Shown here in pieces: positions 11,359-60,883 of a stretch of DNA of 64,000 bases (position 1 is the first letter of the stretch; the number at the start of each line of letters is the position of its first letter). A program made the position numbers and the translations under genes. Origin of the DNA: a virus (taxonomy: Duplodnaviria > Heunggongvirae > Uroviricota > Caudoviricetes); the IMG/VR virus record IMGVR_UViG_3300005613_000042, positions 1-64,000 of that record; one strand, 5' to 3'. The notes below the pieces were generated by a model. The model was not told the origin of the DNA. It did not search any database and saw only the letters and a program-made list of their open reading frames with translations.

Positions 11359-11534
11359 CAGTTTTAACATTATCGATAATATCACTGGTACTGATATTCA
11401 TGTGCTTGATTTTTTTCATCGTCGTTGTAAATCAAGCTATATCACTGGATCGTATGCGTGAATTACTACGTGACAAAGAAGTCATTATAAAATTACTCAG
11501 AGACCATTTAGATTCATTATCACCAAAACCATAA
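11355..11534 (+). CDS. small transmembrane protein (59 aa); below the ORF-track cutoff, found by hand
   Basis: ATG overlaps the upstream stop (ATGA). The protein has an N-terminal hydrophobic helix followed by a charged tail. Confidence 0.35.
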   Translation: MTVLTLSIISLVLIFMCLIFFIVVVNQAISLDRMRELLRDKEVIIKLLRDHLDSLSPKP

Positions 11535-11553
11535 ACTTAGATATTTATAAGTA

Positions 11554-11844
11554 ATGAAAAAGTTTAGGTCTACCGATAGTTTTGTTGATACGGCTGCAAT
11601 GGATACCTATACCATCATTACTGGTAAAAAAACTTTATTTGAAGTTTATGATGGTAATCGTAATTTCATAGCATTATTGTTTGACCCATTTGAACATCCC
11701 ATAGATGCATATGAAGTAATTGATGACTTAATAGAATATTTTGAAGAAACTGAAAAATATGAATATTGTTCAGAATTAATTAAATTGAAGGAATCAATTG
11801 ATGATGCTGATGTTTGGATAGATAAATTACTATGGAGTGAGTAA
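11554..11844 (+). CDS. hypothetical acidic protein (96 aa)
   Basis: ORF on the + strand preceded by an AGATATTTATAAG motif. Confidence 0.5.
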   Translation: MKKFRSTDSFVDTAAMDTYTIITGKKTLFEVYDGNRNFIALLFDPFEHPIDAYEVIDDLIEYFEETEKYEYCSELIKLKESIDDADVWIDKLLWSE

Positions 11845-12514
11845 CATGAAATTTCATACTGAATCTAAGTTGGTTGATGATAAGTGGTTGCAGAAGATTT
11901 GGTCGAGTGATATTCTCTTAGAGATGGAAGAGCACATAATTATATCGCATTTAAACTCACTAAGTATCGCCAAACAAAAAGAAACCTTATACAAATGGGC
12001 GTTTCCAGAATTAGAAGATTCTAAAAATATCAGTAAAATTCAAGATGAATCTGATAATCCTGTAGATTCCTTTATTCAGTTTTTGAAATTATTTTCTACA
12101 GGTATATCCAACCAACAATTGGGTAATTTAGATGTCCTATGGGAAAAAATGTTAGATAGTGATAAAGAAACACTATTTAAGGGAAATCAAGATTTGTTCA
12201 AACAATGGTTTTTAAATTTACATGAAGATTCTGCTAGTATATACGCAACTAGAATTACATCTGGGTTAACCATTTATCCAAGTGGAGTAACCGATTTTAT
12301 GAAAACAATGTTAGATAGTGTAACTGATTCTGAATTTATTAATGTATCTATCATAAACGGTATGTTGGCTATAAGTTGTAGTAACATCGTGAAATTGAAT
12401 CAAATCAAAAATATGATGACAACTACAAATGCAAAGTTACATGAGTATCGTAAAAAGGTTACATCTGATAAAACAATAATGCATACTATCTTGTATAAAA
12501 TATCAGAAATGTGA
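11837..12514 (+). CDS. hypothetical protein (225 aa)
   Basis: ORF on the + strand. Confidence 0.5.
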   Translation: MSNMKFHTESKLVDDKWLQKIWSSDILLEMEEHIIISHLNSLSIAKQKETLYKWAFPELEDSKNISKIQDESDNPVDSFIQFLKLFSTGISNQQLGNLDVLWEKMLDSDKETLFKGNQDLFKQWFLNLHEDSASIYATRITSGLTIYPSGVTDFMKTMLDSVTDSEFINVSIINGMLAISCSNIVKLNQIKNMMTTTNAKLHEYRKKVTSDKTIMHTILYKISEM

Positions 12515-13011
12515 TGGTTAAAGTTGAATACAAAGAAGAGTATAGATTTGGTACATCTTGGAATCAGAATCCAGAAAAACAATATCGATATTTAGAATGT
12601 AAATCTTGTGGGCAAATGATTTGTGCGGGAGATGATGCAAAGGAAATCACATGCTCTGACTGTATTATGGAGTTGGTAGAACCACCTAAAAAAGTTTATA
12701 AGCCATCAGGTAAGCCCAGAGGGTGGCACTTAATGGAGGAATTTGTAGATACAGATGGTGTTGTCTATCACAAGGGGGTTGAGGTACCAAAGCTTAAAGG
12801 TAAACGACCTATTACACCGTTAAAATCTACCCCAAAATTAAGTAAGGCTCAAAAACAAAATATAATCAATGATGCGGCCGCTAAAGTACATAAACTTAAA
12901 AAGGAGTTATCAAAAGCTAAATACAAAAAAGATAAAAATAAGATAAATCGTGATATTAAAAAATTATCTAAAATCATGGATGGAAAAATTCCAAATGATT
13001 ATAAACTTTGA
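12511..13011 (+). CDS. Cys4 zinc-ribbon protein with Lys-rich C-terminal tail (possible nucleic-acid binding)
   Basis: CKSCGQMICAGDDAKEITCSDC plus a KKELSKAKYKKDKNKINRDIKK tail. Confidence 0.45.
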   Translation: MMVKVEYKEEYRFGTSWNQNPEKQYRYLECKSCGQMICAGDDAKEITCSDCIMELVEPPKKVYKPSGKPRGWHLMEEFVDTDGVVYHKGVEVPKLKGKRPITPLKSTPKLSKAQKQNIINDAAAKVHKLKKELSKAKYKKDKNKINRDIKKLSKIMDGKIPNDYKL

Positions 13012-40811: not shown

Positions 40812-41594
40812 ATGTCATGGAAAAAGATTATAACTTCAGGAAGTTTAGCAGAACTAAATGGATTGATAACTACCGCAAACATTACATTATCAAATGCTTC
40901 AATTGTAGGTGATACTACATCTACTCCATTACTAAAAGTAGATACAGACCAATTTGCATTTGTATCATCATTTGATGAAGATGCAGGTCTTTCTTTTGCT
41001 AACATAGGGGGAGACCCTTATTTTACATTTACTAATTTTTCTCAAACTCCTATTATAAAACTTGGTGTTAATAACAACTCCTACACATTTGTAGGTGCAA
41101 TATCGGCATCAATATTTTCAGGTTCATTTGTTGGAGATGGTAGTGGATTGACCAATCTACCTGGTGGAGGTGGTGGCGGAGGTAGTGATACAGATTGGTA
41201 TGAAGGTGTTGGGTTTATTACATCATCCAATGATGTACAAATCACTGGTTCTTTATCTATAACTGGTTCTAGGTTAACATCTAATCCAGTATCACTATCC
41301 ATTTCATCAAATACGGCATCTTTAGATTGTACTGATGGTAATTTTTATACATTAACATTAGCTTCATCTGCAGACACACATTTAGATATAACGAATCCAA
41401 TTGGGGGTCAAACAATCAATGTGAAAATCACACAACCTGCAACCGTTGGTACAATTAGTTTTAGTAGTAATGTTAAATTTGCCGGTGGAATTGCATATAG
41501 TGCATCTGCCGTAGCAAATGCCGTTGATATAATTTCACTTATTACATTTGATAGTACTGATGTATTTTTAACATCTATAAAAGATTTTTCATAA
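40812..41594 (+). CDS. tail fibre protein paralogue (260 aa) with a poly-Gly tract
   Basis: SGSFVGDGSGLTNLPGGGGGGGSDTDWYEGVGFITSSNDVQITGSL; this segment carries the motifs shared with the other fibres. Confidence 0.55.
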   Translation: MSWKKIITSGSLAELNGLITTANITLSNASIVGDTTSTPLLKVDTDQFAFVSSFDEDAGLSFANIGGDPYFTFTNFSQTPIIKLGVNNNSYTFVGAISASIFSGSFVGDGSGLTNLPGGGGGGGSDTDWYEGVGFITSSNDVQITGSLSITGSRLTSNPVSLSISSNTASLDCTDGNFYTLTLASSADTHLDITNPIGGQTINVKITQPATVGTISFSSNVKFAGGIAYSASAVANAVDIISLITFDSTDVFLTSIKDFS

Positions 41595-42334
41595 TGTTTT
41601 CTCCTGTAGGATTTTTACAATTAGATGTTGTTAAGACAAATTTATTGTGGTGGGTAGATTTTAGTGACCCAACTTCGTATCCAACCACAGGTACATCTGT
41701 TATTAACTTAACAGGTGGTTCAAATGGTACTATCCAAAATACACCAGTTTATAGTTCTGATTTTGGAGGTACCATGAATTTTGATGGGGTAGATGATTAT
41801 GTTGATTTCGGAGATACTACATTTCAAGATGGGGCTCCGGCATTTACCATTCATACCGCTGTTAGACCCGGCTCATCTGCAATTTTATCGGCAGGTGATG
41901 TTTCAATTGTTCGTAAATTTACAGCGGGAGCACAAACATTTTCATTAGGTGGGCCAGGCGGTGCCTCTCAACCATACGCGTCTGTAAGAACTCTTATTCG
42001 TGGTAATTTAGGGTTCTTAAACAGCCACTCATCCCCAAACATGTTAGCACTTGATACGTGGGTTTTTGTAACTAGTAGATGGAATGGTGATAATAGTATG
42101 ACATATTTTAAAAATGATGTTGATTGGGGGGTTGGTGTATACAACACCAGACAAACCCCAGGTGTATTAAACAATTCACTTGAACATTTAACAATTGGAG
42201 CCAGATATAATAACAATAGTGAAGATAGATTTTGGAATGGTGATATAGCATTAATTATGTTTTATGATAGAGCATTAACCAATGAAGAGATATTACACAA
42301 TTATAACACAATTAAAACTAGATATATGTTATGA
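41594..42334 (+). CDS. concanavalin A-like lectin/glucanase (LamG) domain protein, candidate receptor-binding tip
   Basis: FDGVDDYVDFGDT ... WVFVTSRWNG ... FWNGDIALIMFYDRALTNEEI (LamG_3-like pattern). Confidence 0.5.
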   Translation: MFSPVGFLQLDVVKTNLLWWVDFSDPTSYPTTGTSVINLTGGSNGTIQNTPVYSSDFGGTMNFDGVDDYVDFGDTTFQDGAPAFTIHTAVRPGSSAILSAGDVSIVRKFTAGAQTFSLGGPGGASQPYASVRTLIRGNLGFLNSHSSPNMLALDTWVFVTSRWNGDNSMTYFKNDVDWGVGVYNTRQTPGVLNNSLEHLTIGARYNNNSEDRFWNGDIALIMFYDRALTNEEILHNYNTIKTRYML

Positions 42335-42585
42335 ATTTAAATACATTTTCAAATAGAAATTATATGATTATCAGTTCATCTGATGTTCCAAACATTGATT
42401 TTAGTGAAATTTTACAAGAAAGCGCAGATACACTTAGGCGTTCAGTAGATGGTAATACAGTTGTTGTAAAGTGGGAATCCGAATCAATTCCAAATAGTAT
42501 AGATGCTTTAACAACCAAAGATGGTCCATATAATCATGAAGAAATTTCTATAATAATGGTAGGTGATAATTGGATGTTTCCTTGA
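42331..42585 (+). CDS. hypothetical protein (84 aa)
   Basis: ORF on the + strand, overlapped start. Confidence 0.4.
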   Translation: MNLNTFSNRNYMIISSSDVPNIDFSEILQESADTLRRSVDGNTVVVKWESESIPNSIDALTTKDGPYNHEEISIIMVGDNWMFP

Positions 42586-42620
42586 TATTTATATATAAAA
42601 TTATACTAAGAGAATAAATA

Positions 42621-43364
42621 ATGATTTCAATTTATAAATTGTTAGAGAATGTGGTATCTGAAGGTGTATATGACCCAGGTATTTTAAAAGCAATTTTTCT
42701 CGCAGGTGGTCCTGGTAGTGGTAAAAGTTATTCAGTAAACCAAATATTTGGAGTTGATAATATAATGAAGGGCACAAGTGCTCTTGGATTGAAAGTTGTC
42801 AATAGTGACCCTGCATTTGAACAACAGCTAAAAAAGGTTGGTGTTAGTCCAAAAAAATTAGGTCAAATGACTGATAAGATTTTCCAATACTACACTACAC
42901 GCCCAGATTCACCTCGTGCTAAAGCAAAACAAACGGTCAAAAAATTACGTGCTATGTATGAGTCTGGAAAATTGGGACTTATTATTGATGGTACTGGTAA
43001 AGATTATGCTAAAATTGAAAAGGACAAGAAAAGACTTGAAGAGTTGGGATATGATATCGCAATGGTATTTGTTAATACAAGTTTACAGGTAGCACTACAG
43101 AGAAATGCAAACCGTGATAGGTCATTACCTGAAGATTTGGTTGAGAAGGGATGGCTAGATGTTCAAAATAATATAGGAAAATTTCAATCTCTTTTTGGAA
43201 ATGATATGATAATAGTAGATAATAGCGAGGCCGGCGATTTCAACAAAATGCACGCAAAAAAGATTCGTGCGGCAGAAAGGTTTGTAAAATCACCAGTTAA
43301 AAACCCAATTGGTAAAAAGTGGATTGAAAATGAACTAAAATTAAGGAAAATTGATACAAAATGA
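42621..43364 (+). CDS. P-loop nucleoside/nucleotide kinase-like protein
   Basis: Walker A LAGGPGSGKSYS. LIIDGTG segment. Lies directly upstream of, and overlapping, the NMNAT-like domain gene. Confidence 0.5.
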   Translation: MISIYKLLENVVSEGVYDPGILKAIFLAGGPGSGKSYSVNQIFGVDNIMKGTSALGLKVVNSDPAFEQQLKKVGVSPKKLGQMTDKIFQYYTTRPDSPRAKAKQTVKKLRAMYESGKLGLIIDGTGKDYAKIEKDKKRLEELGYDIAMVFVNTSLQVALQRNANRDRSLPEDLVEKGWLDVQNNIGKFQSLFGNDMIIVDNSEAGDFNKMHAKKIRAAERFVKSPVKNPIGKKWIENELKLRKIDTK

Positions 43365-45661
43365 ACTTAGGCGAATATATAGCTTATCAATTATTAGAAG
43401 TAGAGTTATCTGGTGATATAAAGCACATTGTTGCATTGTATCCTGGTAGATTCCAACCAATGGGCACTCATCATGCAAAAACATATAAATGGGTTGAATC
43501 TAAATTCGGAGATGCGTGGGTTGTTACAAGTGATAAAGTTCAATTACCAAAGTCGCCTCTAAACTTCAATGAAAAGAAAAAAATTATCAACAAACACGGA
43601 ATCAGTAAAGTAGCTAAGGTAAAAAATCCATACCAAGCAGTAGAAGTATTGAGTAAATATGACCCTAAAACAACTGCGGTAGTATTCATAGTTGGTAAGA
43701 AAGACCAGGAACGCCTTGGTGGTAAATTCTTTCGACCGTGGCGCGGCGTGGCTGAAGTTGGATACCGAGATGGTGCTTATACAATGATTGCACCTCATAT
43801 ATCCTTAAACATACCTGGTGTGGGAGAAATGTCGGGCACAACGATTAGACAAGCTCTTTCTCAATCCCCTGATGGACCTGAATCTAAGAAATTATTCAAG
43901 GGTATCATGGATTGGTATGATGCTGGTATCCATAAAATGATATCTGGCAAACTAATGGTGAACGATATAATTGAAAAGTTTATAAATAACTCAGACTTTA
44001 CAGATACATTACATGAAGCCTCCGTTACTAGTATTTCTCAAGCTGGCGATGTAGATGATGGTCCACAAACTTGGTATAAAAATCAATCTTCTTATAAGAG
44101 TGCCACAAAATCTATAGCCGACCGACTTGGTATGAAAGTTCTTAATTATCTAAGTGGTGATGGTGATTTTGAAGCTGAGTTAACTAGATATCAACATATA
44201 ACTAGGTCACCCAGTACATTTCCAGCCGGCGTACAAGGTAAGACAACTACAATTAACCAAGATGACTTATCTACAAAGACGGCATATAAAGTTTGGAAAC
44301 GATATATTCAAAACATAGTTAGGTCGGTTGGTATGCAATTTCTGGATTATTTAGGAGCTGAATACTCTATAGATGTAGATGAACCAAATACAGAATTAGA
44401 TGATTTATTAGGTGAGGGTCTTTTAGTAGAGACTCCAGATGAGGATGTTGGTAAAGTTCAATGTATGGTGTGTGGGTGTATGATGAAACAAATTCAATAC
44501 AGACATTTAAAATATAGTCATAATGGTATGACTATGCCGGAATATAAAGATAAATACCCAAATGCACCACTTATATTAGACTCCGCTAAAAACACAGGTA
44601 ATAAAAATCCGATGGCTAATCCCATTGTTAGGGAAACGCATAAAAAAAGTGTAACCACAGATGAATACCGAGAAAACCAAAGAATTGGTTCTACTGGCAG
44701 AATCGCAAGCGATGAAACTAAGAAAAAAATGTCTGAAAATAATGCGATGCATTCTTCTGAAAACAGAAAAAAGGTATCGGATGGTGTTCGAAAGGCATAT
44801 GAAAAAGACCCATTATTGAGAGAAAAACGATCGGTGACTGGTAAGAAATATGGGTTTGGTAATAGTAAAACTCAAGATAAAATAGCTGAAGTTAGAGGTA
44901 GTAAACGGGGTGATGAGCGTGATGAATTTGAAAGATATCAAGAATTGGTTAGAATACTTTCAAATAAAAATTATCAAACATACTTCAAAGAAATACCAAA
45001 TGCTAAAAAGCGGAGTAGAGATTATCATTTGGACCACAAATTTTCAATATCAGAAGGATTTAGAAGAAATATTCCAGTCGAAATAATTTCTCATTATTCA
45101 AACTTTGAAATCATGCATGGTCGATTGAATGAGAGTAAGGGAACTAAATCATCAATATCATTACGAGAATTAATTTTTGATATAGAATCATCCAATCATC
45201 CAATTGGACCCCGTAATATCAAGCAATTACTCACTTGCGGTGGGGCTTACGGACACATGCGACATCCGTTCGATGACAACAATCTAACTTTTGGTGATAT
45301 AAAGAACATTATTAGATTATCTCTTCAAGGTAATCTAAGTATGGAAAAGGTAACTACTGAAAAATGTATATCTGGAGATAGTATATTATTTCTTGAAACG
45401 TTGGGGCCTACTAAAATTAAGGATGTAGTTGATGGTGATTTGGATGATGCAGTGTTAGCGTATAATAGTCAAGATGATAAAAATGAATATTTGCCCATAG
45501 TTCATAAGTTTAATAATGGGGAGGTAGATGAGTGGATTGTGATAGAGTTAGAAGATGGAAAGGAAATAAAAGTTACTCCGAATCATAAGATTTTTGTAAA
45601 GAATAAAGGATTTGTGAGAGCTGATGAATTGACAGAATATGATGAGCTTAAGATAGTTTAG
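43361..45661 (+). CDS. N-terminal half of a fractured multidomain gene: NMNAT-like HxGH nucleotidyltransferase domain + C2H2-like Zn finger + NUMOD3/HNH endonuclease module + ligase motif-I region (N-extein) + split-intein N-fragment (last 98 aa)
   Basis: GRFQPMGTHH ... SGTTIRQAL (archaeal-NMNAT-like). CMVCGC ... HNGMTMPEYKDKYP. NUMOD3-like GNKNPM repeats. HNH DYHLDHKFSISEG...N. The ORF ends ...VTTEK|CISGDSILFLE...KVTPNHKIFV...ELKIV* (intein blocks A and B). Confidence 0.6.
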   Translation: MNLGEYIAYQLLEVELSGDIKHIVALYPGRFQPMGTHHAKTYKWVESKFGDAWVVTSDKVQLPKSPLNFNEKKKIINKHGISKVAKVKNPYQAVEVLSKYDPKTTAVVFIVGKKDQERLGGKFFRPWRGVAEVGYRDGAYTMIAPHISLNIPGVGEMSGTTIRQALSQSPDGPESKKLFKGIMDWYDAGIHKMISGKLMVNDIIEKFINNSDFTDTLHEASVTSISQAGDVDDGPQTWYKNQSSYKSATKSIADRLGMKVLNYLSGDGDFEAELTRYQHITRSPSTFPAGVQGKTTTINQDDLSTKTAYKVWKRYIQNIVRSVGMQFLDYLGAEYSIDVDEPNTELDDLLGEGLLVETPDEDVGKVQCMVCGCMMKQIQYRHLKYSHNGMTMPEYKDKYPNAPLILDSAKNTGNKNPMANPIVRETHKKSVTTDEYRENQRIGSTGRIASDETKKKMSENNAMHSSENRKKVSDGVRKAYEKDPLLREKRSVTGKKYGFGNSKTQDKIAEVRGSKRGDERDEFERYQELVRILSNKNYQTYFKEIPNAKKRSRDYHLDHKFSISEGFRRNIPVEIISHYSNFEIMHGRLNESKGTKSSISLRELIFDIESSNHPIGPRNIKQLLTCGGAYGHMRHPFDDNNLTFGDIKNIIRLSLQGNLSMEKVTTEKCISGDSILFLETLGPTKIKDVVDGDLDDAVLAYNSQDDKNEYLPIVHKFNNGEVDEWIVIELEDGKEIKVTPNHKIFVKNKGFVRADELTEYDELKIV
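45365..45658 (+). mobile_element. split intein, N-terminal fragment (IntN, 98 aa)
   Basis: Block A CISGDSIL and block B TPNHKIF. The ORF stops right after the Hint N-domain. Confidence 0.65.
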
Positions 45662-45686
45662 AGTACCATCTGTTTTTTCAATAAAT

Positions 45687-46535
45687 TTGATATTTATAAG
45701 TATGATGAAAAAATGTAACTATTGTGGGGTGATTACAAACAGTATTAGTTCCCATATGCGAGATTGTTCTGATTATATATATTGGAGAGATAAAACATTT
45801 ACTAGAGAATTTCTCTATCAAGAATATGTAGAGAAAGGGAAATCAGCTATTCAAATTGCGAATGAAAATGGGTTTAGGTCGTCTAGTGCAATAAATAGAA
45901 TGCTTAAAAAGCATAATATTAACATAAGAGGAATTAGTACTTCACATAATATACCTTTGTATAAAAAAAGAATAGAACAAACTAATGTAAATAGATTCGG
46001 TGCACCGAATCCATTATGCAAAGGAACCGTTCCTTTTAAAAAAAGAAATAAAACAGTTATGGAACGGTATGGGGTAGATAATGTCAGGAAGCATCCAGAT
46101 GTTATTGCCAAGATAAAAAAGTCTTTAGCCCAGTGGAGAAATGAAAATGGACATTCTACGTTGGGATTGACACATTCATCGGAAACTAAAAATAAAATGA
46201 GAAAATCTGCTATATATAATATACAGTCTTGCGTTGGACAATTATCTCCATCTTACAATCCATCATCAATCCCCATCCTTGAATCAAAAGCAAGGGAACT
46301 TGGCATAACCGACCTTCAACATGCGGAAAATGGCGGAGAATATCACATTAAAGAACTTGGATATTGGGCGGATGGATACAGCAAAGAGAAGAATATAGTT
46401 ATTGAGTACGATGAAAAACATCATTTTGATATAGATGGAAATTTGAAAGATAAAGATAAAACGCGTCAGAGGGAAATAGAAAATTACTTGGGGTGTGAGT
46501 TCATTAGAATTAAAGCAATGGAGACTTCTTCTTGA
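45687..46535 (+). CDS. free-standing homing endonuclease-like gene lying between the intein halves
   Basis: Sits in a different frame from the flanking intein ORFs. NUMOD-like helices. C-terminal ELGYWADGYSKEKNIVIEYDEKHHFDIDGN (Vsr/EDxHD-like nuclease motif). Preceded by a TTGATATTTATAAG motif. Confidence 0.55.
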   Translation: MIFISMMKKCNYCGVITNSISSHMRDCSDYIYWRDKTFTREFLYQEYVEKGKSAIQIANENGFRSSSAINRMLKKHNINIRGISTSHNIPLYKKRIEQTNVNRFGAPNPLCKGTVPFKKRNKTVMERYGVDNVRKHPDVIAKIKKSLAQWRNENGHSTLGLTHSSETKNKMRKSAIYNIQSCVGQLSPSYNPSSIPILESKARELGITDLQHAENGGEYHIKELGYWADGYSKEKNIVIEYDEKHHFDIDGNLKDKDKTRQREIENYLGCEFIRIKAMETSS

Positions 46536-46636
46536 AAATAAAATCAATAAAAAGGGTTAAAAATGTAGAAACTTGCTATGATATACAAGTTCCTGATAGA
46601 CATTGCTATTATGCAAATGGAATATTAGTACATAAT
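46532..46636 (+). mobile_element. split intein, C-terminal fragment (IntC, 35 aa)
   Basis: Canonical ...GILVHN followed by Thr. Same reading frame as the IntN ORF. Confidence 0.65.
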
Positions 46637-47704
46637 ACGGATGGACAAAATTTATTCATCACTTGGGCTAATGGAAAATTGAGAGCCGCTCGTAACACAA
46701 GTGATTTGAAAAGGGGTGGTATGGATGTTAAGGCTGTTGCAGCTAAGTTTGCAGGTCGTGGTAATATTGAGAAAGCATTCAATTCAGCTATGAATGATTT
46801 ATCAAAAGCTATTGGTTCACTAACAGACGCTCAAAAAGAGAAGATATTCGCTAATGGCGGTAATTGGGTAAATATGGAAATTATATATCCACCATCAGCT
46901 AATGTTATTTCATATGACGCTCCATATTTACAATTCCACAATGTATTGAGTTATTCAGGTTCCACTCCAACTGGTGAGATAACAGATGGTGCCAGAATAT
47001 TAGCCGGTATGATAAAACAAGTCAATGCGAATTTGCAAAAAACCTTTTCAATAATTGGACCGAACGTATTGACGTTAAAGGGTAGTACTGATTTTTCCGA
47101 AAAACAAGATTACTTCATAAACAAAGTTAAAAAATTACAATCTGAATTTAAGTTAAGTGATACCGCAACATTATCTGAATATCATCAAGCATGGTGGGAA
47201 CGGTTTGTGGAAAAGATGTTTCCAAACATTGATAATAGGACTAAAATGGAATTAGTTACACGATGGGCTTTTGGTGACAAGAGTTTCCGTTTAAATAAAA
47301 AAAATATCACAGATGAAACCCTCTTAGCAAAAGCTATAAAATTCGATAAGCAAAATCATCAAGACCAAATCAAGAAAAATATGTTCCCATTTGAAACACT
47401 TATTTTTGAACTTGGTGTAGAGGTCTTGAAAAATGTGGAGGGTTTCTTAGCTGCAAATCCAAATAAGACTATTCAAGGTATACGAAATGCAGTTGCAAAA
47501 TCAATTAGAGATGTTCGTAAAGGTGGTGATTTGAAAAAACTAAAAAGAATAGACCAACAGTTAGCTAAAATAAAGGCTATTGGTGGTTGGAATGCGATAG
47601 TTCCATCTGAGGGAATTGTTATGGTATACAGGGGTAACACCTACAAATTGACTGGAGCCTTCGCGCCCATAAATCAAATAACCGGGTTGATGAATTTTGA
47701 TTAA
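46532..47704 (+). CDS. C-terminal half of the fractured gene: split-intein C-fragment (35 aa) + ligase-like nucleotidyltransferase C-extein
   Basis: Start MKIKSIKRVKNVETCYDIQVPDRHCYYANGILVHN|TDGQN (intein blocks F and G, +1 Thr). The predicted splice product has ...EKTDGQNLF (KxDGxN motif I). A motif-III-like NMEIIYPPSANVISY and C-terminal EGIVMVYRGNTYKLTG (motif IV/V-like) follow. Confidence 0.6.
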   Translation: MKIKSIKRVKNVETCYDIQVPDRHCYYANGILVHNTDGQNLFITWANGKLRAARNTSDLKRGGMDVKAVAAKFAGRGNIEKAFNSAMNDLSKAIGSLTDAQKEKIFANGGNWVNMEIIYPPSANVISYDAPYLQFHNVLSYSGSTPTGEITDGARILAGMIKQVNANLQKTFSIIGPNVLTLKGSTDFSEKQDYFINKVKKLQSEFKLSDTATLSEYHQAWWERFVEKMFPNIDNRTKMELVTRWAFGDKSFRLNKKNITDETLLAKAIKFDKQNHQDQIKKNMFPFETLIFELGVEVLKNVEGFLAANPNKTIQGIRNAVAKSIRDVRKGGDLKKLKRIDQQLAKIKAIGGWNAIVPSEGIVMVYRGNTYKLTGAFAPINQITGLMNFD

Positions 47705-47721
47705 ATTAAAGGACATATTAC

Positions 47722-48156
47722 TTGAATCGTTTGATTGGAAATCTCACACAAGGGGTGATATCTATTACCCACCTGTTAATTTGGGGGTTCACTAGAGATA
47801 TGATGCCACAGATAGAAGATAAGTATCAAACTACATTTTTTAGGTATTTGAGGGACAATCTTATTAAATTCACGAAACGATTAGTTCATGTTCGTGAATT
47901 ACGACCAGCTCAAACCGAACTTAGAGTTGATATTGCACATAAGTTATTAAAATCTAATTCTACTAAACTTAAAAAACCTATTATAGTATCTTCAGATAAT
48001 TATTTAATGGATGGTCACCATCGTTGGTTTGCTTTTATACTTGATGATGCAAATATGAAAGTAAATGTTGTTAAAGTAGATTTACCTGGATCAAAGCTAC
48101 TTGATATGATGAATAAGTTTGATTATGTAGTAACCAAACCAATAGATAATAAGTAA
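47722..48156 (+). CDS. ParB/sulfiredoxin-like nuclease domain protein
   Basis: KPIIVSSDNYLMDGHHRWFA (DGxHR motif). Confidence 0.55.
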   Translation: MNRLIGNLTQGVISITHLLIWGFTRDMMPQIEDKYQTTFFRYLRDNLIKFTKRLVHVRELRPAQTELRVDIAHKLLKSNSTKLKKPIIVSSDNYLMDGHHRWFAFILDDANMKVNVVKVDLPGSKLLDMMNKFDYVVTKPIDNK

Positions 48157-48166
48157 AATAATAGTT

Positions 48167-48745
48167 ATGAAAAAAAATATAAGTGAAAGTAAAGTAAAGC
48201 GTATGCGAAATATTGTTAAGGGTAACTACAACGATAAAACTCGCATTCAATCTGGGTATAGTAAAATTAATACTCAATATAAAGAGGGTGATGTGTGGGA
48301 AGAACGCGGTAAAACTTGGACTATTAAGAACGGTATCAAACAAAATATCACTAAATTGGATTTGGCCAGGAAACAATTAATACCTCCAATTTCATGTCCA
48401 AAATGCGATGGTCCCATGAATCATGATTTATCAAAGTATTATTGGCAAAAATTAGGTATGTGTAAAAATTGCACCGTCAAATTTCATACTAGGTTAAAAA
48501 TAGATGGTAAGTGGAATGAATATGTTGAAGAGTTACAGGGTAAAAATTTTGAATTTTGGCTAGATGATATTAAAAAAGAATATGAAGAGTGGTTAGACAC
48601 TAGTACTAAAAAGTATATTACAGAAACTGGTTATGTTGAAAATTGGACAGGTGGTAAATCTAAGGAAGATCTATTGTCTGATTTTAATAAAAAACTAAAC
48701 AATATCAAGGAGAAATCGGATGCCAACACAAAAGGAATTGATTGA
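48167..48745 (+). CDS. zinc-ribbon protein (192 aa)
   Basis: CPKCDGPMNHD ... CKNCTVKFH. Confidence 0.45.
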   Translation: MKKNISESKVKRMRNIVKGNYNDKTRIQSGYSKINTQYKEGDVWEERGKTWTIKNGIKQNITKLDLARKQLIPPISCPKCDGPMNHDLSKYYWQKLGMCKNCTVKFHTRLKIDGKWNEYVEELQGKNFEFWLDDIKKEYEEWLDTSTKKYITETGYVENWTGGKSKEDLLSDFNKKLNNIKEKSDANTKGID

Positions 48746-49073
48746 ACAATTAGTTTCTGAAATATCTGTTATAAAACGTGGGTTGCCTAATGGGGAACTT
48801 ACTGTTTTAAAAACTAGTTTAGATGAGTTGAAGGAAAGTGTTTCAAAACTAGAATATAGATTGTTGAATCCAGATGATGGTATCATTGTAGAGACAAATA
48901 AGAATTCTTGGCATCGTAAACAGATGGACGATAAAATTAAAGAACATGATGAGAAACTTTCAGATTTAGATAAACTAATTACATGGAAAGAAAATGTTCA
49001 AAAAGCTCTTTGGGTCGTTTATTCTGCTATAATTGGTATGATAATTAAAATAATAACTGAGTTGTTTAAATGA
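48720..49073 (+). CDS. hypothetical protein with C-terminal transmembrane helix (117 aa)
   Basis: ORF on the + strand. Confidence 0.45.
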   Translation: MPTQKELIEQLVSEISVIKRGLPNGELTVLKTSLDELKESVSKLEYRLLNPDDGIIVETNKNSWHRKQMDDKIKEHDEKLSDLDKLITWKENVQKALWVVYSAIIGMIIKIITELFK

Positions 49074-49157
49074 GTATAATAGGAATTTTCACATTGGTAA
49101 TTATCTCAGTTATATTGGGTAAGCAAGTTTGTAAACTAACTGATAGAAAGTCAAAAC

Positions 49158-49646
49158 ATGATAGATAAAATATTTACAGGAGCGGCCGGAGAACTTTTTG
49201 AAAAAGTTAGTGGGCTTGTTGATGATTTGGTAACAACTAAAGAAGAAAAGTTAGCCGCAAAACTTGAAATGCGTGAGTTGATTCTCCAGGCAGAACGTGA
49301 TGCTGAACTGAGAGTAAGTGAACGTTGGGACTATGATATGAAATCGGATAACAAATTATCCAAAAATATCAGACCAATTGTATTGATTTTCCTAACAACA
49401 GTTTTTGTGTTTATTTCATTTTTCGATGGAAATGTTGGGCATTTTGAACTAGATGAGGCATATAAGAACATTTATCAAACGTTACTTATGACTGTGTATG
49501 GTGCTTATTTTGCAGGTAGAAGTTTCGAAAAGGTAAACTTGGGCACCAAGACAATAGATGCGGAGGTAGAAATGGGCGACCCAAGTAATAGATTATCAAG
49601 ACGAGAAAAGCGACGTTCTCGTAAGGAAAATGGTGAGACTGGATAA
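49158..49646 (+). CDS. membrane protein (162 aa) with basic C-terminal tail
   Basis: Central hydrophobic segment. Immediately upstream of the terminase gene. Confidence 0.45.
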   Translation: MIDKIFTGAAGELFEKVSGLVDDLVTTKEEKLAAKLEMRELILQAERDAELRVSERWDYDMKSDNKLSKNIRPIVLIFLTTVFVFISFFDGNVGHFELDEAYKNIYQTLLMTVYGAYFAGRSFEKVNLGTKTIDAEVEMGDPSNRLSRREKRRSRKENGETG

Positions 49647-51244
49647 TGAGTAATCAAAAAAAAAGTTCTGTTAATATAAAACAACTTATTATAGAAGAAT
49701 ATAAGAAGTGTGCCGCTGACCCAGTATACTTCATGAAGAAATATTGTTATATTCAACATCCTGTTAAGGGTAAGATGTTATTTAATCTTTACCCATTTCA
49801 GGAAAAGGCATTACTTGATATTGACCAACATCGTTATGAAATTGTATTGAAATCCCGTCAGTTGGGTATTTCAACGTTAGTAGCCGGGTTTGCTCTTTGG
49901 AAAATGACTTTTGTGGAGGACTATAACGTTTTAGTTATTGCCACCAGTCGTGAAGTTGCAAAAAACTTGGTTACAAAGGTTAGGGTTATGTATGATTATC
50001 TACCCAGTTGGTTGAAAAATCAAACTGAAGAAGATAATAAACTTTCTCTTAGATTCAAAAATGGTTCTCAGATAAAGGCATCATCTGCCAGTGGTACCGC
50101 GGGTCGTTCAGAGGCACTATCTCTTTTGGTATTTGACGAGGCCGCTTTTATTGATAGAATTGATGAGATATGGACCGCCGCTCAACAAACATTGGCTACT
50201 GGTGGTCGTTGTATTGCATTAAGTACCCCAAATGGAACTGGTAATTGGTTTCATAAACAATGGGTAGCCGGTGAAGAAGGTGGTGGTGAATTTAACACAC
50301 TACGGTTACACTGGACGGTTCACCCAGACCGTGACCAAGAATGGCGTGATGAGCAAGATTCATTACTTGGATCCAAGATGGCCGCTCAAGAATGTGACTG
50401 TTCGTTTATAAGCTCGGGTAATACTCTTATTGATGGTGAATTAATTCAATGGTTTGAATCAACTCAAGTAGAAGATCCAATCGGTAAACGTGGTCCAAAT
50501 GATGAATTGTGGATATGGGAATATCCCGACTACACACGAGACTATATGTTGGTAGCTGACGTTGCTAGAGGGGATGGGGGTGATTATTCAGCATTCCATG
50601 TAATTGATACAGAAGCATGCAAACAAGTAGCAGAGTATCGTGGTCAACTTGGTACAAAGGATTATGGTAATATGTTGGTAAACATTGCCACAGAATACAA
50701 TAATGCATTATTGGTTATTGAAAACGCAAATATTGGGTGGGCAGCCATACAACCCGCGTTAGACCGTGGGTATAATAATCTTTATTACACGTATAAACAC
50801 GAAGGTGTAACTGATGCTACTGTCCAACTTAAAAAGGGGTATGATATAAAAGATAAAACTCAGATGACACCCGGATTCACTACATCTGCTAAAACACGTC
50901 CACTTTTGGTTTCGAAACTTGATATTTATACACGAGAGAAAGCATGTACTATTCGTTCAAAACGTTTGGTTGATGAATGGTATGTGTTTATCTGGAATGG
51001 CAACAAATGTGAAGCACAACGTGGATATAATGATGACTTGACTATGGCGTTTTCTATTGGACTTTTTGTCAGAGATTATGCATTGAAGTTGAGAAATGAT
51101 GGACTTGAAATCAATCGAAACACACTTAAATTATTCCACAAAACAGGAACTTCCCAATATAAATCGTTTACACCAAGCAACCAATCAAATCCATGGAGTA
51201 TGGATGTTAACGGTCAAAGAGAAGGCTTGGATTGGCTTTTATAA
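49646..51244 (+). CDS. terL: terminase large subunit (T4 gp17-like)
   Basis: Walker A LKSRQLGISTL, Walker B LLVFDEAAF and a C-terminal nuclease region. 532 aa. Confidence 0.75.
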   Translation: MSNQKKSSVNIKQLIIEEYKKCAADPVYFMKKYCYIQHPVKGKMLFNLYPFQEKALLDIDQHRYEIVLKSRQLGISTLVAGFALWKMTFVEDYNVLVIATSREVAKNLVTKVRVMYDYLPSWLKNQTEEDNKLSLRFKNGSQIKASSASGTAGRSEALSLLVFDEAAFIDRIDEIWTAAQQTLATGGRCIALSTPNGTGNWFHKQWVAGEEGGGEFNTLRLHWTVHPDRDQEWRDEQDSLLGSKMAAQECDCSFISSGNTLIDGELIQWFESTQVEDPIGKRGPNDELWIWEYPDYTRDYMLVADVARGDGGDYSAFHVIDTEACKQVAEYRGQLGTKDYGNMLVNIATEYNNALLVIENANIGWAAIQPALDRGYNNLYYTYKHEGVTDATVQLKKGYDIKDKTQMTPGFTTSAKTRPLLVSKLDIYTREKACTIRSKRLVDEWYVFIWNGNKCEAQRGYNDDLTMAFSIGLFVRDYALKLRNDGLEINRNTLKLFHKTGTSQYKSFTPSNQSNPWSMDVNGQREGLDWLL

Positions 51245-56716: not shown

Positions 56717-57574
56717 ATGTCAAAAGACCTATTAAAAGAGGCAATTGCCGATGCTAAGGCTGTTAGGGAAACTGCAATTGCGAACGCTAAGTTAGCGTTG
56801 GAAGAAGCATTCACTCCAAAGATTCAGTCAATGTTGAGTGCACAGATTTCAGAAGAAGATGAAGAAGAATTCGAAGATGAGTTAGAAACTTCTGATGAAA
56901 TGGAATCTGATGTAGAAGATGTTGTTGATGATATGGAGGATGCTATGGATGACGCTGATGAGGAAGATGAAATGGATTCTGAAGAAGATGAAGATGACAT
57001 GGAACTAGAATCAATCATTAGAGAACTTGAAGCCGAAATGGAAGATGACACCATTGAGGAAGAAGAGGAGGAAGATGAGGCATTCGAATCTCTAGTTCGT
57101 GAATTGGAATCTGATGAAGATGAAATGTATGAAGAGGAAGATGGAGAGCTGGATTTAGATGAGATTATCCGTGAGTTATCCGAAGAAGATGAAGATGATA
57201 TGTATGAAGAGGAAGAAGATAATTCTGAACTCGAAGAAGCATATTCAACTATCGCTAAACTAAAGGAAACACTTACTGAAGTAAACATCTTAAATGCAAA
57301 ACTTCTTTACTCAAACAAACTATTCAGAAACTTCAACCTTAGTGAATCGCAAAAAATCAGAGTGATTGAAAACTTTGACCGAGCACAAACTGTTAGAGAA
57401 ATCAAGTTGGTATACAGTACTTTAACTGAATCTCTAAAGGTAAATGCTGGTAAGAAGAATATCGCTGAAGGATTAGCATCTAAGGCAGTTGGTTCAACAA
57501 AACCAAAAAAAGAAATCATCAATGAATCTGGTGATTTTGCAGACCGCATGAAAAAACTTGCGGGTTTACTTTAA
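56717..57574 (+). CDS. prohead scaffolding protein (gp22-like), extremely acidic
   Basis: About 40% Glu/Asp. Sits directly upstream of the capsid gene and is preceded by AAGGAG. Confidence 0.6.
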   Translation: MSKDLLKEAIADAKAVRETAIANAKLALEEAFTPKIQSMLSAQISEEDEEEFEDELETSDEMESDVEDVVDDMEDAMDDADEEDEMDSEEDEDDMELESIIRELEAEMEDDTIEEEEEEDEAFESLVRELESDEDEMYEEEDGELDLDEIIRELSEEDEDDMYEEEEDNSELEEAYSTIAKLKETLTEVNILNAKLLYSNKLFRNFNLSESQKIRVIENFDRAQTVREIKLVYSTLTESLKVNAGKKNIAEGLASKAVGSTKPKKEIINESGDFADRMKKLAGLL

Positions 57575-57598: not shown

Positions 57599-59257
57599 AT
57601 GAATAAAATGATTTCAGATTTGCTTAACGATGCTAATAATACTTGGCGCCAACAGCGTGAAGAAACTCGTGCATTCGTTAACAAATGGGAAAAGAGTGGT
57701 CTCTTAGAAGGAATTGAGCATGAATATGAACGCCATAACACTGCTATCCTTTTAGAGAACCAAGCACGTCAATTGGTTTATGAGGCAAGTACTACAAATG
57801 CTGGTGCCGGTGAAGCTAGAGAAGATTGGAATGGTGTTGCCCTTCCACTCGTTCGTCGTATCTTCGGTCAAATCAGCGCCAAAGAATTTGTTTCAGTTCA
57901 ACCAATGAACCTTCCTTCAGGTCTAGTATTCTACTTAGACTTCAAGTATGGTGGTCCTGATACGGCTGGTAGATTTACTGGTGATATCATGGGTAACACT
58001 TCTTCATCATCAACCCCAACTGGTGGTCTTTACGGTAAGAACAAAGGTGGTTACTCCCTCAAGCAGAAAACCGCTACTGTATCACTTATTACATCTGCTA
58101 CCGCATCTTGGGCTGAGTTAGGATTCGATGCTGAGTTAAGTTCTTCTATCGCAGATGGTGGTGCAGGTGGTGTTGAGACTTACAAGATTTCATTCCCAAC
58201 CACTGCATTGAGTACTGCTGTTGATGTTGCCGCTGTTCAGATGTTTGTAGCAACTGCTTCAGGTATTACAGCTAACAACAACTTGGGTGAGTACAACTAC
58301 ATTAGTACTGGTGCTACTACCGCTACTAGAATCTTCAAGAATGAAAATCTACCTGCATCTTGCTCGTTGTTCATCCAAGCAACATCTGCTCCTACTGAAG
58401 TTCAGGTAACTTACTTCGAGAACACTTTGAATTCATACGCTCGCGGTGACTTTGAAGATACAAACCCAATCGAAGGTCCATCTTCAGGTACTAACCTTAA
58501 CATTCCTGAAATCAACGTTGAACTTCGTCAAGAAGCCATCGTTGCTAAAACAAGAAAACTAAAGGTTGTTTGGTCACCTGAATTCGCTCAGGACTTGAAC
58601 GCCTATCACAGCATCGATGCTGAAGCAGAATTGACAAGCATGTTGTCAGAATATGTAGCAATGGAAATCGACCTTGAAATTCTTGGTATGATTGAACAAG
58701 CCGCTCTTCACACAGACAACTGGTCAGCCGATATCGGTCAAGTAATTGCCGCCGGTGCATCTGCTCCTAGTGTTGTTACTGGAGCGGCCGCCGCAGCATA
58801 CAACCAACAAAGCTGGTTCCAAACTCTAGGTACTAAAGTTCAGAAGTTAAGCAACAAGATTTACCAGTCAACCATGCGTGGGCAGGCAAACTTCATCGTT
58901 GTTTCTCCTGAAGTAAGTACTATTTTGGAATCAATCCCAGGATACTCTGTAGACACCACTGGTGACCAAACACAGTATGCAATGGGTGTTGCTAAAGTTG
59001 GTACACTTGCAAACAGATTCACTATCTACAAGAATCCATACTTCTTAGACAACGTTCTATTGATGGGATTCCGTGGAACTCAATTCTTGGAAACTGGTGC
59101 TGTATACGCTCCTTACATTCCATTGATTATGACTCCGCTTGTATACGACCCAACTAACTTTACCCCACGTAAAGGGGTCATGACACGTTATGCGAAGAAG
59201 GTAGTTCGTCCCGAATTCTTCGGTAAAATCTACATCGCTGGTTTAGATTCATTCTAA
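57599..59257 (+). CDS. major capsid protein (T4 gp23-like)
   Basis: 552 aa. Sits after the protease/scaffold genes. Strong terminator follows. Call is positional plus size. Confidence 0.6.
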   Translation: MNKMISDLLNDANNTWRQQREETRAFVNKWEKSGLLEGIEHEYERHNTAILLENQARQLVYEASTTNAGAGEAREDWNGVALPLVRRIFGQISAKEFVSVQPMNLPSGLVFYLDFKYGGPDTAGRFTGDIMGNTSSSSTPTGGLYGKNKGGYSLKQKTATVSLITSATASWAELGFDAELSSSIADGGAGGVETYKISFPTTALSTAVDVAAVQMFVATASGITANNNLGEYNYISTGATTATRIFKNENLPASCSLFIQATSAPTEVQVTYFENTLNSYARGDFEDTNPIEGPSSGTNLNIPEINVELRQEAIVAKTRKLKVVWSPEFAQDLNAYHSIDAEAELTSMLSEYVAMEIDLEILGMIEQAALHTDNWSADIGQVIAAGASAPSVVTGAAAAAYNQQSWFQTLGTKVQKLSNKIYQSTMRGQANFIVVSPEVSTILESIPGYSVDTTGDQTQYAMGVAKVGTLANRFTIYKNPYFLDNVLLMGFRGTQFLETGAVYAPYIPLIMTPLVYDPTNFTPRKGVMTRYAKKVVRPEFFGKIYIAGLDSF

Positions 59258-59320: not shown

Positions 59321-60883
59321 ATGTATAATTATACCAAACAAAGGTGTGAAATGAAAAATACATGTAAAATTTGTAATGTGAAAATTCCTAAGAATCGCAT
59401 ATATTGTTCTAACAAATGCAAATTCTCAGATAAAGATTACAATAGAGGTAGGGTATCTAAGTCAAAGAATCCTAAAAACAAAATGTTAGTATGTAAGTTA
59501 TGTAATAAAAAAAGTAAAGATATTTTAAACAAGAGCGGGACTATAACCAAACACTTGAGTGAAGAACATTCTATTCAGAATTTTCAAAATTTCATGGACT
59601 ATTATGAAATGGTAGATATTTCACCAACTCCAAAATTAAATTGTAAAATGTGCAATTACAGTACTGTAGATGTAAATAATAAATCAGGCGCATTCACTAA
59701 ACACATTTTGCAAGAACATGGTATTACGCCAACTGAATATTGTAAAAAATTCCCAAGTGAATCTAAATTATGGTTTCATTACTTTAATGTGGAAACCAAA
59801 AAATCCATTCAGAAAAAGAAAGGAATTCAATGTAAGTTGTGTGGAAATTATTATAAGACTATTAGTAACTCTCATTGCAAATCAGTACATGGAATTACAC
59901 AAGATGATTATAAATTGAGATTTGGTGATACCATTGTCTGTGACCATACTTCAGATAAATTATCAGATATAGCCACCAATACAAATGCAACCAGAAATTG
60001 GACTTACAGGTCTAAATTAGAAATTGACATTTGTAATTTTTTAGAATCAAACAATATAAAATTTATACCCACTTACAAAAGTTTGGGAACTGAATTAGAT
60101 ATCTACACACCTGACTATAGAATTGCAATTGAAGTAAATGGGTTATTATGGCACTCGGAGTTGTTTGGAAACAAGCACAAATCATATCATTTAAACAAAA
60201 CAAATATTTGTAATGATAATGATATTAAGCTTATTCACATATTTGAAGATGAATGGAATGATAACACAGAACTAGTTAAGAAAAAACTTTTACATATTTT
60301 TAACAAAAGTGATGTACCATCGATATACGCTAGAAACACAAAAGTAGTATCAGTTAGTTCTAAAGATAGAATTGAGTTTTTAGAGAAACACCACATACAA
60401 GGTGGTGATAAAAGTGGCATATGTTATGGATTATCATATTCAGATGATTTAATTGCAATTATGTCATTTTCAAAACCAAGAATATCATTGGGGTCTACAT
60501 CAAAAAATGATACGTATGAATTAGTTAGGTTTGCTACAAACACAGATTATAGATGTGTTGGTGCAGCAGGTAAATTGTTGAAACATTTTATAAATGTATA
60601 TAACCCAAATACAATTTATTCATATGCTGATTTGAGATGGACTGGTAAAAATAACAATCTTTATACAAATCTTGGTTTCAAACTAATGTCTATCAGTAAA
60701 CCTAGCTATTGGTATATGCCAAATTATAAAACTAGAATGCATAGATATAATTTCACGAAGCATAGAATTGTATCTAAATTTGGAGGTGATATCAATTTAA
60801 GTGAATGGCAAAACATGCAAAAACTCGGATATGATAGAATATGGGATTGTGGAAATCTTAAATATCAATTAGATTTGTTATAA
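59321..60883 (+). CDS. composite homing-endonuclease-like protein: three CxxC...HxxxHG(I/M)T..EY zinc-finger repeats + Vsr/DUF559-like PD-(D/E)xK nuclease + GNAT-like C-terminus
   Basis: CKLCNKKSKDILNKSGTITKHLSEEHSIQNF, CKMCNYS...HILQEHGITPTEYCKKFP and CKLCGNYYK...SVHGITQDDY. Then PDYRIAIEVNGLLWHSE (Vsr-like). C-terminus RFATNTDYRCVGAAGKLL. Confidence 0.5.
   Translation: MYNYTKQRCEMKNTCKICNVKIPKNRIYCSNKCKFSDKDYNRGRVSKSKNPKNKMLVCKLCNKKSKDILNKSGTITKHLSEEHSIQNFQNFMDYYEMVDISPTPKLNCKMCNYSTVDVNNKSGAFTKHILQEHGITPTEYCKKFPSESKLWFHYFNVETKKSIQKKKGIQCKLCGNYYKTISNSHCKSVHGITQDDYKLRFGDTIVCDHTSDKLSDIATNTNATRNWTYRSKLEIDICNFLESNNIKFIPTYKSLGTELDIYTPDYRIAIEVNGLLWHSELFGNKHKSYHLNKTNICNDNDIKLIHIFEDEWNDNTELVKKKLLHIFNKSDVPSIYARNTKVVSVSSKDRIEFLEKHHIQGGDKSGICYGLSYSDDLIAIMSFSKPRISLGSTSKNDTYELVRFATNTDYRCVGAAGKLLKHFINVYNPNTIYSYADLRWTGKNNNLYTNLGFKLMSISKPSYWYMPNYKTRMHRYNFTKHRIVSKFGGDINLSEWQNMQKLGYDRIWDCGNLKYQLDLL

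Follow-up and report, generated by a model that had tools for sequence, protein, structure and literature searches.

The window analysed here is a stretch of 64,000 nucleotides (nt) from a virus of the class Caudoviricetes (IMG/VR record IMGVR_UViG_3300005613_000042, positions 1 to 64,000). Between positions 43361 and 47704 it carries a gene, divided over three open reading frames (ORFs), that is best read as a native two-domain enzyme, a nucleotidyltransferase fused to an RNA-ligase-like domain, bearing two mobile elements: a homing-endonuclease insert that lies in frame without any splicing element, and a split intein that comes with its own gene for an endonuclease. The probability of this reading is estimated at about 75%. 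The insert sits at one exact codon boundary, alleles with and without it exist among relatives of the gene, homologues of it stand free elsewhere, and its divergence is out of step with that of the host gene.

The three ORFs cover 43361-45661, 45687-46535 (282 aa, in another frame) and 46532-47704. The first encodes 766 aa without an internal stop. An initial annotation, made from the sequence alone, had described a stop-free N-extein of 668 codons, and this proved exact: the first residue of the intein N-half is Cys669 at nt 45365 (CISGDS...), which places the N-extein at 43361-45364. The C-extein begins with Thr at nt 46637, and the joined exteins read ...TTEK/TDGQNLF..., colinear with uninterrupted homologues and matching them exactly. 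The features of the gene, all on the + strand, are as follows.

43361-45661 (+): N-precursor ORF, 766 aa, comprising nucleotidyltransferase, linker, endonuclease insert, ligase start and intein N-half; stop codon TAG at 45659-45661
43418-43960 (+): nucleotidyltransferase domain of NMNAT/PPAT fold, aa ~20-200, with GRFQPMGTHH (a permuted HIGH motif, from aa 29) and MSGTTIR (MSGTTIRQAL from aa 157)
43961-44431 (+): variable linker or middle region, aa 201-357, mostly predicted disordered (structural model of the relative P0123, drop in identity) and missing in family members of ~650 aa
44432-45238 (+): putative homing-endonuclease insert in frame with the host gene, 807 nt or 269 codons, covering aa 358-626 (empty-allele junctions, allele census, free-standing homologues, discordant identity)
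44456-44560 (+): Ros/MucR-type Cys2His2 zinc finger of the insert, a putative DNA-binding module (C368, C371, H382, H387; CMVCGC...HLKYSH, aa 368-387)
44561-45007 (+): helical repeat region of the insert, NUMOD3/DUF7487-like, presumed DNA-binding (AlphaFold2 (AF2) helices, a weak Pfam match, DUF7487 in relatives)
45008-45160 (+): putative HNH-like (beta-beta-alpha-metal) nuclease core of the insert, H556-L-D558-H559-K...N581...N590-E-S-K (YHLDHKFS from aa 555, NFEIMHGRLNESKG from aa 581)
45239-45364 (+): opening 42 aa of the RNA-ligase-like domain, GGAYGHMRHPFDD...TTEK, with an invariant family motif; the last residue of the segment is the motif I lysine, K668
45365-45661 (+): split-intein N-half, 98 aa, with Cys1 and the TPNH block B, then a stop codon (Pfam Intein_splicing, Hint)
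45687-46535 (+): free-standing endonuclease gene between the intein halves, in another frame, likely ATG at 45702 (PHROG, Pfam DUF7487)
46532-46636 (+): C-half of the split intein, 35 aa, ...NGILVHN (match to positions 122-155 of 155 in Pfam Intein_splicing)
46637-47704 (+): C-extein, the remaining RNA-ligase-like domain (TDGQNLF...; NMEIIYP; a helical insertion of ~200 aa; SEGIVMVY...YKLTG), including the stop codon

Insert junctions and allele series

DNA comparison with the empty allele of the related locus L006 delimits the insert to 807 nt, 44432-45238, between GAG (Glu) and GGT GG. Its left junction reads ...CTTTTAGTAGAG/ACTCCA... and its right junction ...ACTTGC/GGTGGGGCT.... Empty sites of the L006 type read ...GGTGAGGGTCTTCTAATAGAGGGTGGTGCATATGGACACATG..., divided at the insertion point as ...GAGGGTCTTCTAATAGAG/GGTGGTGCATATGGACACATG..., and a footprint allele with TGC reads ...CAATTACTCACTTGC/GGTGG.... 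At the protein level, the insertion point falls between Glu and Gly-Gly of the conserved family motif EGGAYGHMxHPFDD. The nearest uninterrupted relative, P0123 (761 aa), shows the same position intact, reading ...DDLLGEGLLIE-GGAYGHMRHPFDD... where the window protein reads ...DDLLGEGLLVE-[269 aa]-GGAYGHMRHPFDD.... With insert and intein cut out in silico, the two proteins are 75% identical over their full length (nucleotidyltransferase 86%, linker 44%, ligase 83%).

The insert spans a whole number of codons, has coding sequence on both sides and possesses neither a start nor a stop codon of its own; the host protein is therefore expected to contain it as an internal stretch of 269 aa. Before its first zinc ligand (codons TPDEDVGKVQC) no ATG, GTG or TTG occurs in frame, and the sole nearby Met lies after Cys368. 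Independent initiation is therefore unlikely in the window allele, unlike in the relatives P0235 and P0257. The view that the frame is genuinely coding throughout holds up: a stop-free run of 269 codons would arise by chance with a probability of ~1e-9 (by our own estimate of ~7% stop probability per codon at 34% GC), the insert is conserved in at least 17 clusters, and it evolves at a dN/dS of 0.25-0.32.

P0123 was modelled with AF2 from 58 sequences (mean pLDDT 74); the model shows a confident N-domain (residues 20-200), pLDDT below 50 over residues 202-297 and 328-369, and an ordered C-domain (370-760). The insertion point, E364/G365 in P0123 numbering, falls where a stretch of pLDDT below 50 ends, right before the ordered ligase fold, which starts at residue 370. 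The insert is probably tolerated through this position at the end of a disordered linker. In the homologue P0101 (1097 aa, outside the window), a different insertion of ~340 aa with an HExxH motif (HEFTH) occupies about the same boundary, which suggests that the junction of linker and ligase is a permissive hot spot for insertions.

The state of the site was determined in 234 cluster representatives of the family, with the following result.

Empty site, 186 of 234: Glu before GG in 185, Ala in one
Full insert, 17 of 234: 4 with the intein as well, 13 without it
Long remnant, 4 of 234: in P0086 just the beginning of the finger is left, fused to the C-terminal tail
Footprint without insert, 25 of 234: RQLLxC-GG retained

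The family thus displays a presence/absence polymorphism at one exact codon boundary (186 sites empty, 17 occupied and 29 with a remnant or footprint). All inserted alleles have Cys instead of Glu at the downstream junction, and Cys before GG is confined to inserted or derived alleles. Because the insert occurs without the intein (P0093, P0126-P0128) and the intein without the insert (P0201), the two are independent elements. In one relative, L007, the nucleotidyltransferase forms a separate 196-aa ORF (PF01467, 35 bits) that overlaps the start of an ORF encoding the HNH-like module, the ligase N-terminus and the intein N-half. With its split located at the insert, this arrangement is a derived, gene-in-pieces form.

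A word-indexed homologue search with the insert alone returned 3 matches, and an exhaustive search of representatives 1539. These comprise internal segments of long nucleotidyltransferase-ligase proteins, free-standing ORFs, and many proteins sharing only the C-terminal nuclease. Free-standing ORFs of 237-276 aa (P0245, P0246, P0253) match the insert end to end, from finger to nuclease, and the T4-like Serratia phage CHI14 has a homologue of 227 aa situated between gp18 and gp19.

Divergence within the locus provides further evidence of mobility. Between the window and the relative L003, the insert is 85.8% identical in nucleotide sequence, with a sharp left edge at ~44432, whereas all other segments of the 5-kb locus are 59-72% identical; the intein-borne endonuclease gene, at 59%, does not share the insert's high conservation. 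For the same pair, synonymous divergence amounts to 0.37 for the insert, against 2.09 for the intein N-half and saturation in the nucleotidyltransferase, linker and ligase N-terminal segments. Because the insert is far less diverged than the gene that carries it, these figures argue for lateral spread rather than vertical co-inheritance, and indicate that the insert moved recently and independently of its host gene.

Host enzyme, insert domains and split intein

The insert is predicted to encode a homing endonuclease in which a zinc finger of Ros type is followed by helical repeats, presumed to bind DNA, and by an HNH-like nuclease; its cleavage activity is predicted. The finger, already recognised in the initial annotation, has the Cys2His2 arrangement, CxxC-x9/10-H-x3/4-H, and the flanking sequence of the Ros/MucR family, with invariant zinc ligands; it matches the Ros87 profile (2jsp, E=1.4e-4) and Pfam PF05443 (E=4.9e-5, 23.8 bits, just below the 25.4-bit cut-off). 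The repeats that had been called NUMOD3-like are indeed helical (helices 64-183 in an AF2 model), but the NUMOD3 label has a Pfam match of E=0.17 as its sole support; the relatives P0237 and P0316 carry DUF7487 domains. The in-frame HNH-like module retains an invariant pattern, H-L-D-H-K...N...N-x-S-K. Searches with Pfam, NCBIfam, phmmer and PDB profiles recovered only the Ros finger, with no Pfam, NCBIfam or PDB-sequence match to any HNH family, and 10 free-standing relatives of the insert likewise matched no HNH model. The insert also matches PHROG 5104, labelled 'unknown function'.

As had been noted, the finger recurs in a gene at 59321-60883 (+, 520 aa), just downstream of the major capsid gene (57599-59257). 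Its product has three Ros/MucR-like fingers (PF05443, E=6.9e-8), a Vsr/MTES_1575-like PD-(D/E)xK nuclease region and a weak GNAT-like C-terminus, and is probably a further free-standing homing endonuclease, with the same finger module as the insert. An extremely Asp/Glu-rich protein of 285 aa, presumably scaffold-like, is encoded at 56717-57574 (+), upstream of the capsid gene.

The host protein itself is widespread. Homologue searches returned 413 and 1464 matches, mostly from marine and freshwater metagenomes, with hundreds from uncultured aquatic phages; the ligase part is present in only 3 of 50,697 deposited phage genomes, and a megablast of the window's 40-52 kb region against the same number of phage genomes gave zero matches. 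The main length classes of the family, ~650, ~755 and ~800 aa, are all contiguous proteins. Uninterrupted homologues found by tblastn include a 639-aa protein of Microcystis phage Mel-JY01 (WWT39297, annotated 'cytidylyltransferase like protein') and a 915-aa protein of the uncultured 484-kb phage LR756508 (L002), which has an extra ParB-like N-terminus. Because such contiguous homologues exist, P0123 among them, and 186 of 234 sites are empty, the fusion of nucleotidyltransferase and ligase is the native, ancestral and by far the commonest state, and the insert entered an existing gene at the linker/ligase boundary. The initial annotation had proposed either a novel multidomain enzyme or two genes fused by an HNH endonuclease inserted between them. 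The protein is multidomain, but the fusion is common in public sequence data and not new; the second proposal is contradicted by the 186 representatives that are fused without the insert, including WWT39297 of Mel-JY01 and P0123.

The N-terminal domain has the Rossmann-like fold of the NMNAT/NaMNAT/PPAT (PF01467) class, in keeping with the nucleotidyltransferase assignment made from its motifs. Profile searches of the PDB (queries A1 and A2) returned PPAT matches only, for this N-domain, and the PF01467 score is 14.5 bits for the window protein, under the 21-bit cut-off, and 35 bits, above it, for L007. The first motif has the form GxHH (PMGTHH within 43445-43474, aa 29-38) here and in 223 relatives, the canonical HxGH (PFHxGH) occurring in 15; the second motif, of the ISxTxxR type, is present as MSGTTIR.

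Ligase motif I, of the pattern KxDGxN with the Lys as predicted nucleophile, is formed at the splice junction as EK668/TDGQN, confirming that the intein interrupts it; 58 relatives all keep its E, K, D, G and N. The segment between insert and motif I measures 42 aa, close to the ~45 aa first proposed. Motifs III and IV/V had been placed ~90 and ~350 aa after motif I; in the spliced product the candidates for motifs III, IV and V lie at +79, +324 and +336 aa. The unusual spacing stands, and is accounted for by ~200 helical residues inserted between putative motifs IIIa and IV. Comparison of the modelled C-domain with known ligases gave figures of 7.7 for T. brucei REL1, 7.2 for T4 Rnl2, 7.1 for Naegleria Rnl, 7.0 for fungal Trl1, 6.7 for archaeal Rnl and 6.3 for T4 Rnl1. 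No Pfam, NCBIfam or PHROG model recognises this domain, PDB profile searches gave no ligase match, and hhalign of the family profile against T4 Rnl2 reached 2% probability, its sole alignment pairing TEKTDGQN with REKIHGTN. Since sequence methods miss the relation to RNA ligases, the domain is named only 'RNA-ligase-like'.

The intein is intact in its diagnostic features. Pfam Intein_splicing (E=5e-8) and Hint match the N-half, and Intein_splicing matches the C-half as well; the joined halves match the NrdJ-1 split intein (8ubs) with E=1.2e-18. Hint blocks A, B, F and G are present over the two ORFs, with C669 (Cys1), TPNH and ...VHN/T, the Thr taking the +1 nucleophile position, as in a split intein. 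The split, three-ORF arrangement is kept in L003, L004, L005 and L007, and the layout is conserved at 71% identity. The split intein is genuine, with trans-splicing its predicted activity. The intein-borne gene, 45687-46535, matches PHROG homing endonuclease / HNH endonuclease families (E~3e-6) and Pfam DUF7487 (E=1.8e-5); its product has a zinc finger, DUF7487-like repeats and a C-terminal EYDEKHH nuclease motif. No clear T4 late-promoter or hairpin element of the kind in Dassa et al. (PMC2677866) was found upstream of it, the only candidate being TATTTATAA, the reverse complement of TTATAAATA. NrdJ-1-class split inteins are used in protein engineering, and this new natural relative is a possible tool.

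Two neighbouring genes frame the locus.

42621-43364 (+): P-loop kinase of the Zeta_toxin/AAA_33 type, polynucleotide-kinase-like; upstream neighbour, sharing its last 4 nt with the beginning of the main ORF
47722-48156 (+): ParB/Srx-like ORF, downstream context (PHROG 2859, E=4e-23; C-terminus of PHROG 3041, 'cytidyltransferase')

The kinase gene matches Pfam Zeta_toxin (E=1.7e-7) and AAA_33 (E=1.4e-5), a PHROG polynucleotide kinase (E=7e-6) and an NCBIfam PSTK-like model (E=2e-5), and the same neighbour precedes the nucleotidyltransferase-ligase gene in L003, L004, L005 and L006. In L007 a PolyA_pol/CCA-adding-enzyme-like gene adjoins the locus. These neighbours suggest a role in RNA or tRNA end repair, the substrate being a prediction from gene context. 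T4 repairs tRNA with the Pnkp kinase and the Rnl1 and Rnl2 ligases. The arrangement here is similar in that a polynucleotide-kinase-like gene adjoins an RNA-ligase-like gene, with the CCA-adding-enzyme-like gene added in L007. It differs in that no 3'-phosphatase is recognisable, the ligase is fused to an NMNAT-fold domain and carries the ~200-aa helical insertion between motifs IIIa and IV, and its activity is predicted.

Other observations bear on this part of the genome. The ParB-like N-terminus of the 915-aa protein of LR756508 is homologous to the separate ORF 47722-48156, which is missing in L005, a relative at 94% identity; there a 192-aa ORF comes straight after the 390-aa ORF. At 635-4891 and 10152-10438 (+), ARAGORN reports five tRNA genes, Ser-GCT, Gly-TCC, Met-CAT, Ile-TAT and Cys-GCA, which would be compatible with an RNA-repair theme, and a candidate permuted tmRNA-like gene (tag peptide GEYSYAVAA) that may be a false positive. 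The L007 genome is heavily colonised by homing elements, as seen at 2635-4986 and 11157-12795: a GIY-YIG/NUMOD3 endonuclease gene without an intein divides its PolyA_pol/CCA-adding-enzyme-like gene into two ORFs, and its large terminase has a LAGLIDADG match and probably contains an intein.

Proposed mechanism and competing explanations

Homing endonucleases are usually thought to persist in essential genes inside an intron or intein, or by splitting the gene. Here, the embedded endonuclease would cut insert-free alleles of co-infecting relatives at the DNA encoding the most conserved motif of the family, and recombinational repair of the break would copy the insert into the cut allele. The 3' end of the insert, where LLxC mimics LLxE, would destroy the target site and so protect the occupied allele; if LLxC abolishes the target, the insert-free Cys alleles are explained as resistant footprints. 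The insert would remain as an internal segment of the mature host protein, and split-intein trans-splicing would rejoin ...TTEK and TDGQN..., rebuilding motif I. In this scheme, we infer that the endonuclease cleaves, where it does so, that the mature protein keeps the insert and that trans-splicing takes place.

Several points weigh against this account or soften it. Production and stability of the fusion protein and its cutting of DNA are putative, and nucleotidyltransferase activity is uncertain owing to GxHH in place of HxGH. The comparison with L005 runs in the same direction as that with L003 (insert 99.0% identical, 84-98% elsewhere) but is weaker evidence, the pair being mosaic and the kinase gene also 98% identical. 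Across 42621-47704, identity to L005 varies between 98% (kinase gene) and ~67-72% (parts of the C-extein and of the endonuclease gene within the intein), a pattern that implies frequent recombination among these phages. Finally, the insert occurs at the same site in two deep clades with ~45-50% identity between them, similar to the host protein, and this persistence, together with purifying selection, would also fit a domesticated domain.

That last possibility, in which the zinc-finger/HNH block is no longer selfish and has become a functional domain, for example a nuclease directed at host or rival-phage DNA and coupled to RNA repair, is considered unlikely. Besides the shared site in two deeply diverged clades, the dN/dS of 0.25-0.32 with all catalytic and zinc-ligand residues kept would suit it, as would the fact that the nuclease reads into the ligase without a stop in every variant, even those with a start of their own (P0235, P0257). 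HNH-Rnl2 fusions are, moreover, interpreted as functional in a passage of PMC7824862. Nevertheless, a domain serving the enzyme is difficult to reconcile with the absence of the insert from 186 of 234 representatives, with decay remnants and footprints, with free-standing homologues at positions typical of homing endonucleases, and with an insert much less diverged than its host gene.

A more radical proposal holds that the invariant change from Glu to Cys at the downstream junction marks a new, non-Hint form of post-translational removal or activation of the insert or, in a milder form, that the endonuclease has its full activity as a permanent part of a functioning RNA-repair enzyme. We regard this as very unlikely. 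If true, the former would constitute a third class of in-frame self-processing mobile element beside inteins and BILs, and the milder form would define 'domain-insertion homing', a distinct lifestyle of phage homing endonucleases. Self-excision by non-Hint chemistry in particular, with the invariant Cys before Gly-Gly as a +1-like nucleophile, is even less probable. It could account for Cys replacing Glu at the downstream junction of all inserted alleles, for a Cys near the insert start and for the host motif resuming right past the junction. However, aa 358-626 contain no Hint match and no His-Asn before the Cys (the preceding residue is T, L, V, M or Q), the upstream junction is unconserved, and the N-terminal Cys is a zinc ligand of the Ros-type finger. 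The Cys is also kept in the 25 insert-free footprint alleles, as expected if it was carried along or confers target-site immunity. An intein as the insert itself was rejected, since Hint blocks are missing from aa 358-626 and the junction residues are unconserved except for the downstream Cys.

The least probable explanation of all takes the long frame as artefactual, with separate genes merged by a frameshift in sequencing or assembly, or takes the ORF as intron-borne and spliced from the RNA. Phage homing endonucleases often reside in group I introns, and L007 has the nucleotidyltransferase and the HNH-ligase part as separate, overlapping ORFs. The L007 arrangement gives no support to a gene merger, because its split lies at the insert and is a derived state. 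The initial annotation had itself raised a frameshift error that merged separate genes, and this does not fit the data: homologous ORFs ending at the same point reproduce the frame in independent assemblies (P0121 at 94% protein identity, P0122 at 71% on 9 contigs), and 13 further intein-free clusters have it as well. Both insert junctions keep the frame, and so do the remnants, which are peptide footprints. A group I or II intron around the insert was rejected after an Rfam search of 41000-50000 at E<=1, which gave no intron and only three chance-level matches.

Relation to known systems and significance

The closest precedent for the intein is the class of fractured genes, in which a split intein has a free-standing homing endonuclease gene between its halves (Dassa et al. 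2009, PMC2677866). The segment 45365-47704 follows that plan: N-extein and intein N-half are succeeded, after a short spacer, by an endonuclease ORF read in a different frame, whose end is overlapped by the ORF of intein C-half and C-extein. The intein is most similar to NrdJ-1 from the same data set. In contrast, the host here is RNA-ligase-like and belongs to none of the eight host types listed there, the sole ligase among them being a Felix01-like DNA ligase (PMC2677866), and the gene also carries a second endonuclease inserted without an intein. For the insert, passages of the same paper describe free-standing endonucleases that invaded genes without intron or intein, as in Aeh1 nrdA/mobE, Aeromonas phage 25 gp43 and an SbcD-like locus (PMC2677866). 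These likewise place an endonuclease inside a conserved enzyme gene without a splicing element, and L007 and P0257 show a comparable gene-in-pieces state. The host gene in those passages is broken into two ORFs, whereas here it remains one polypeptide with an internal in-frame segment.

Organellar genes offer a second comparison: an in-frame fusion of fungal mitochondrial rps3 with a LAGLIDADG endonuclease (Gibb & Hausner 2005, as summarised in a passage of PMC7902536) and an HNH-containing insertion linked to cox2 fission (PMC5374615). In both, an endonuclease ORF in frame with host coding sequence is tolerated without splicing; they involve other endonuclease classes or gene fission, and mostly terminal fusions, whereas the phage insert is internal, at a domain boundary, and accompanied by a full allele series. 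The initial annotation had called the architecture unprecedented, which is too strong. The same in-frame insert occupies the same codon in at least 17 database clusters, and Rnl2-family RNA ligases with N-terminal HNH domains, read as functional, appear in a passage of Iyer et al. 2021 (PMC7824862, citing Burroughs & Aravind 2016). Those fusions, as that passage presents them, share with this gene a phage arrangement in which an HNH or, here, HNH-like domain immediately precedes an ATP-dependent RNA-ligase-type domain in the same frame; they differ in that population data here indicate a mobile insertion and that the ligase domain is not detectably Rnl2 by sequence. The novelty lies in what is combined here: a phage enzyme carries an endonuclease internally, in frame and without a splicing element, every member of the allele series can be seen, and the same gene has a split intein as well. 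It is a variation on known mobile-element biology and not a new kind of enzyme.

The host protein, widespread in uncultured aquatic phages and carrying a permuted HIGH motif, is a candidate new RNA-repair enzyme. The insert would represent a third way for an endonuclease to live in a gene, in frame at a flexible domain boundary and translated with the host protein, and the stages of invasion, decay, loss and immunity would all be visible in public metagenomes. Phage nuclease-enzyme fusions, including HNH-RNA ligase fusions of the kind described in that passage of PMC7824862, can be scars of mobile elements rather than designed fusions.

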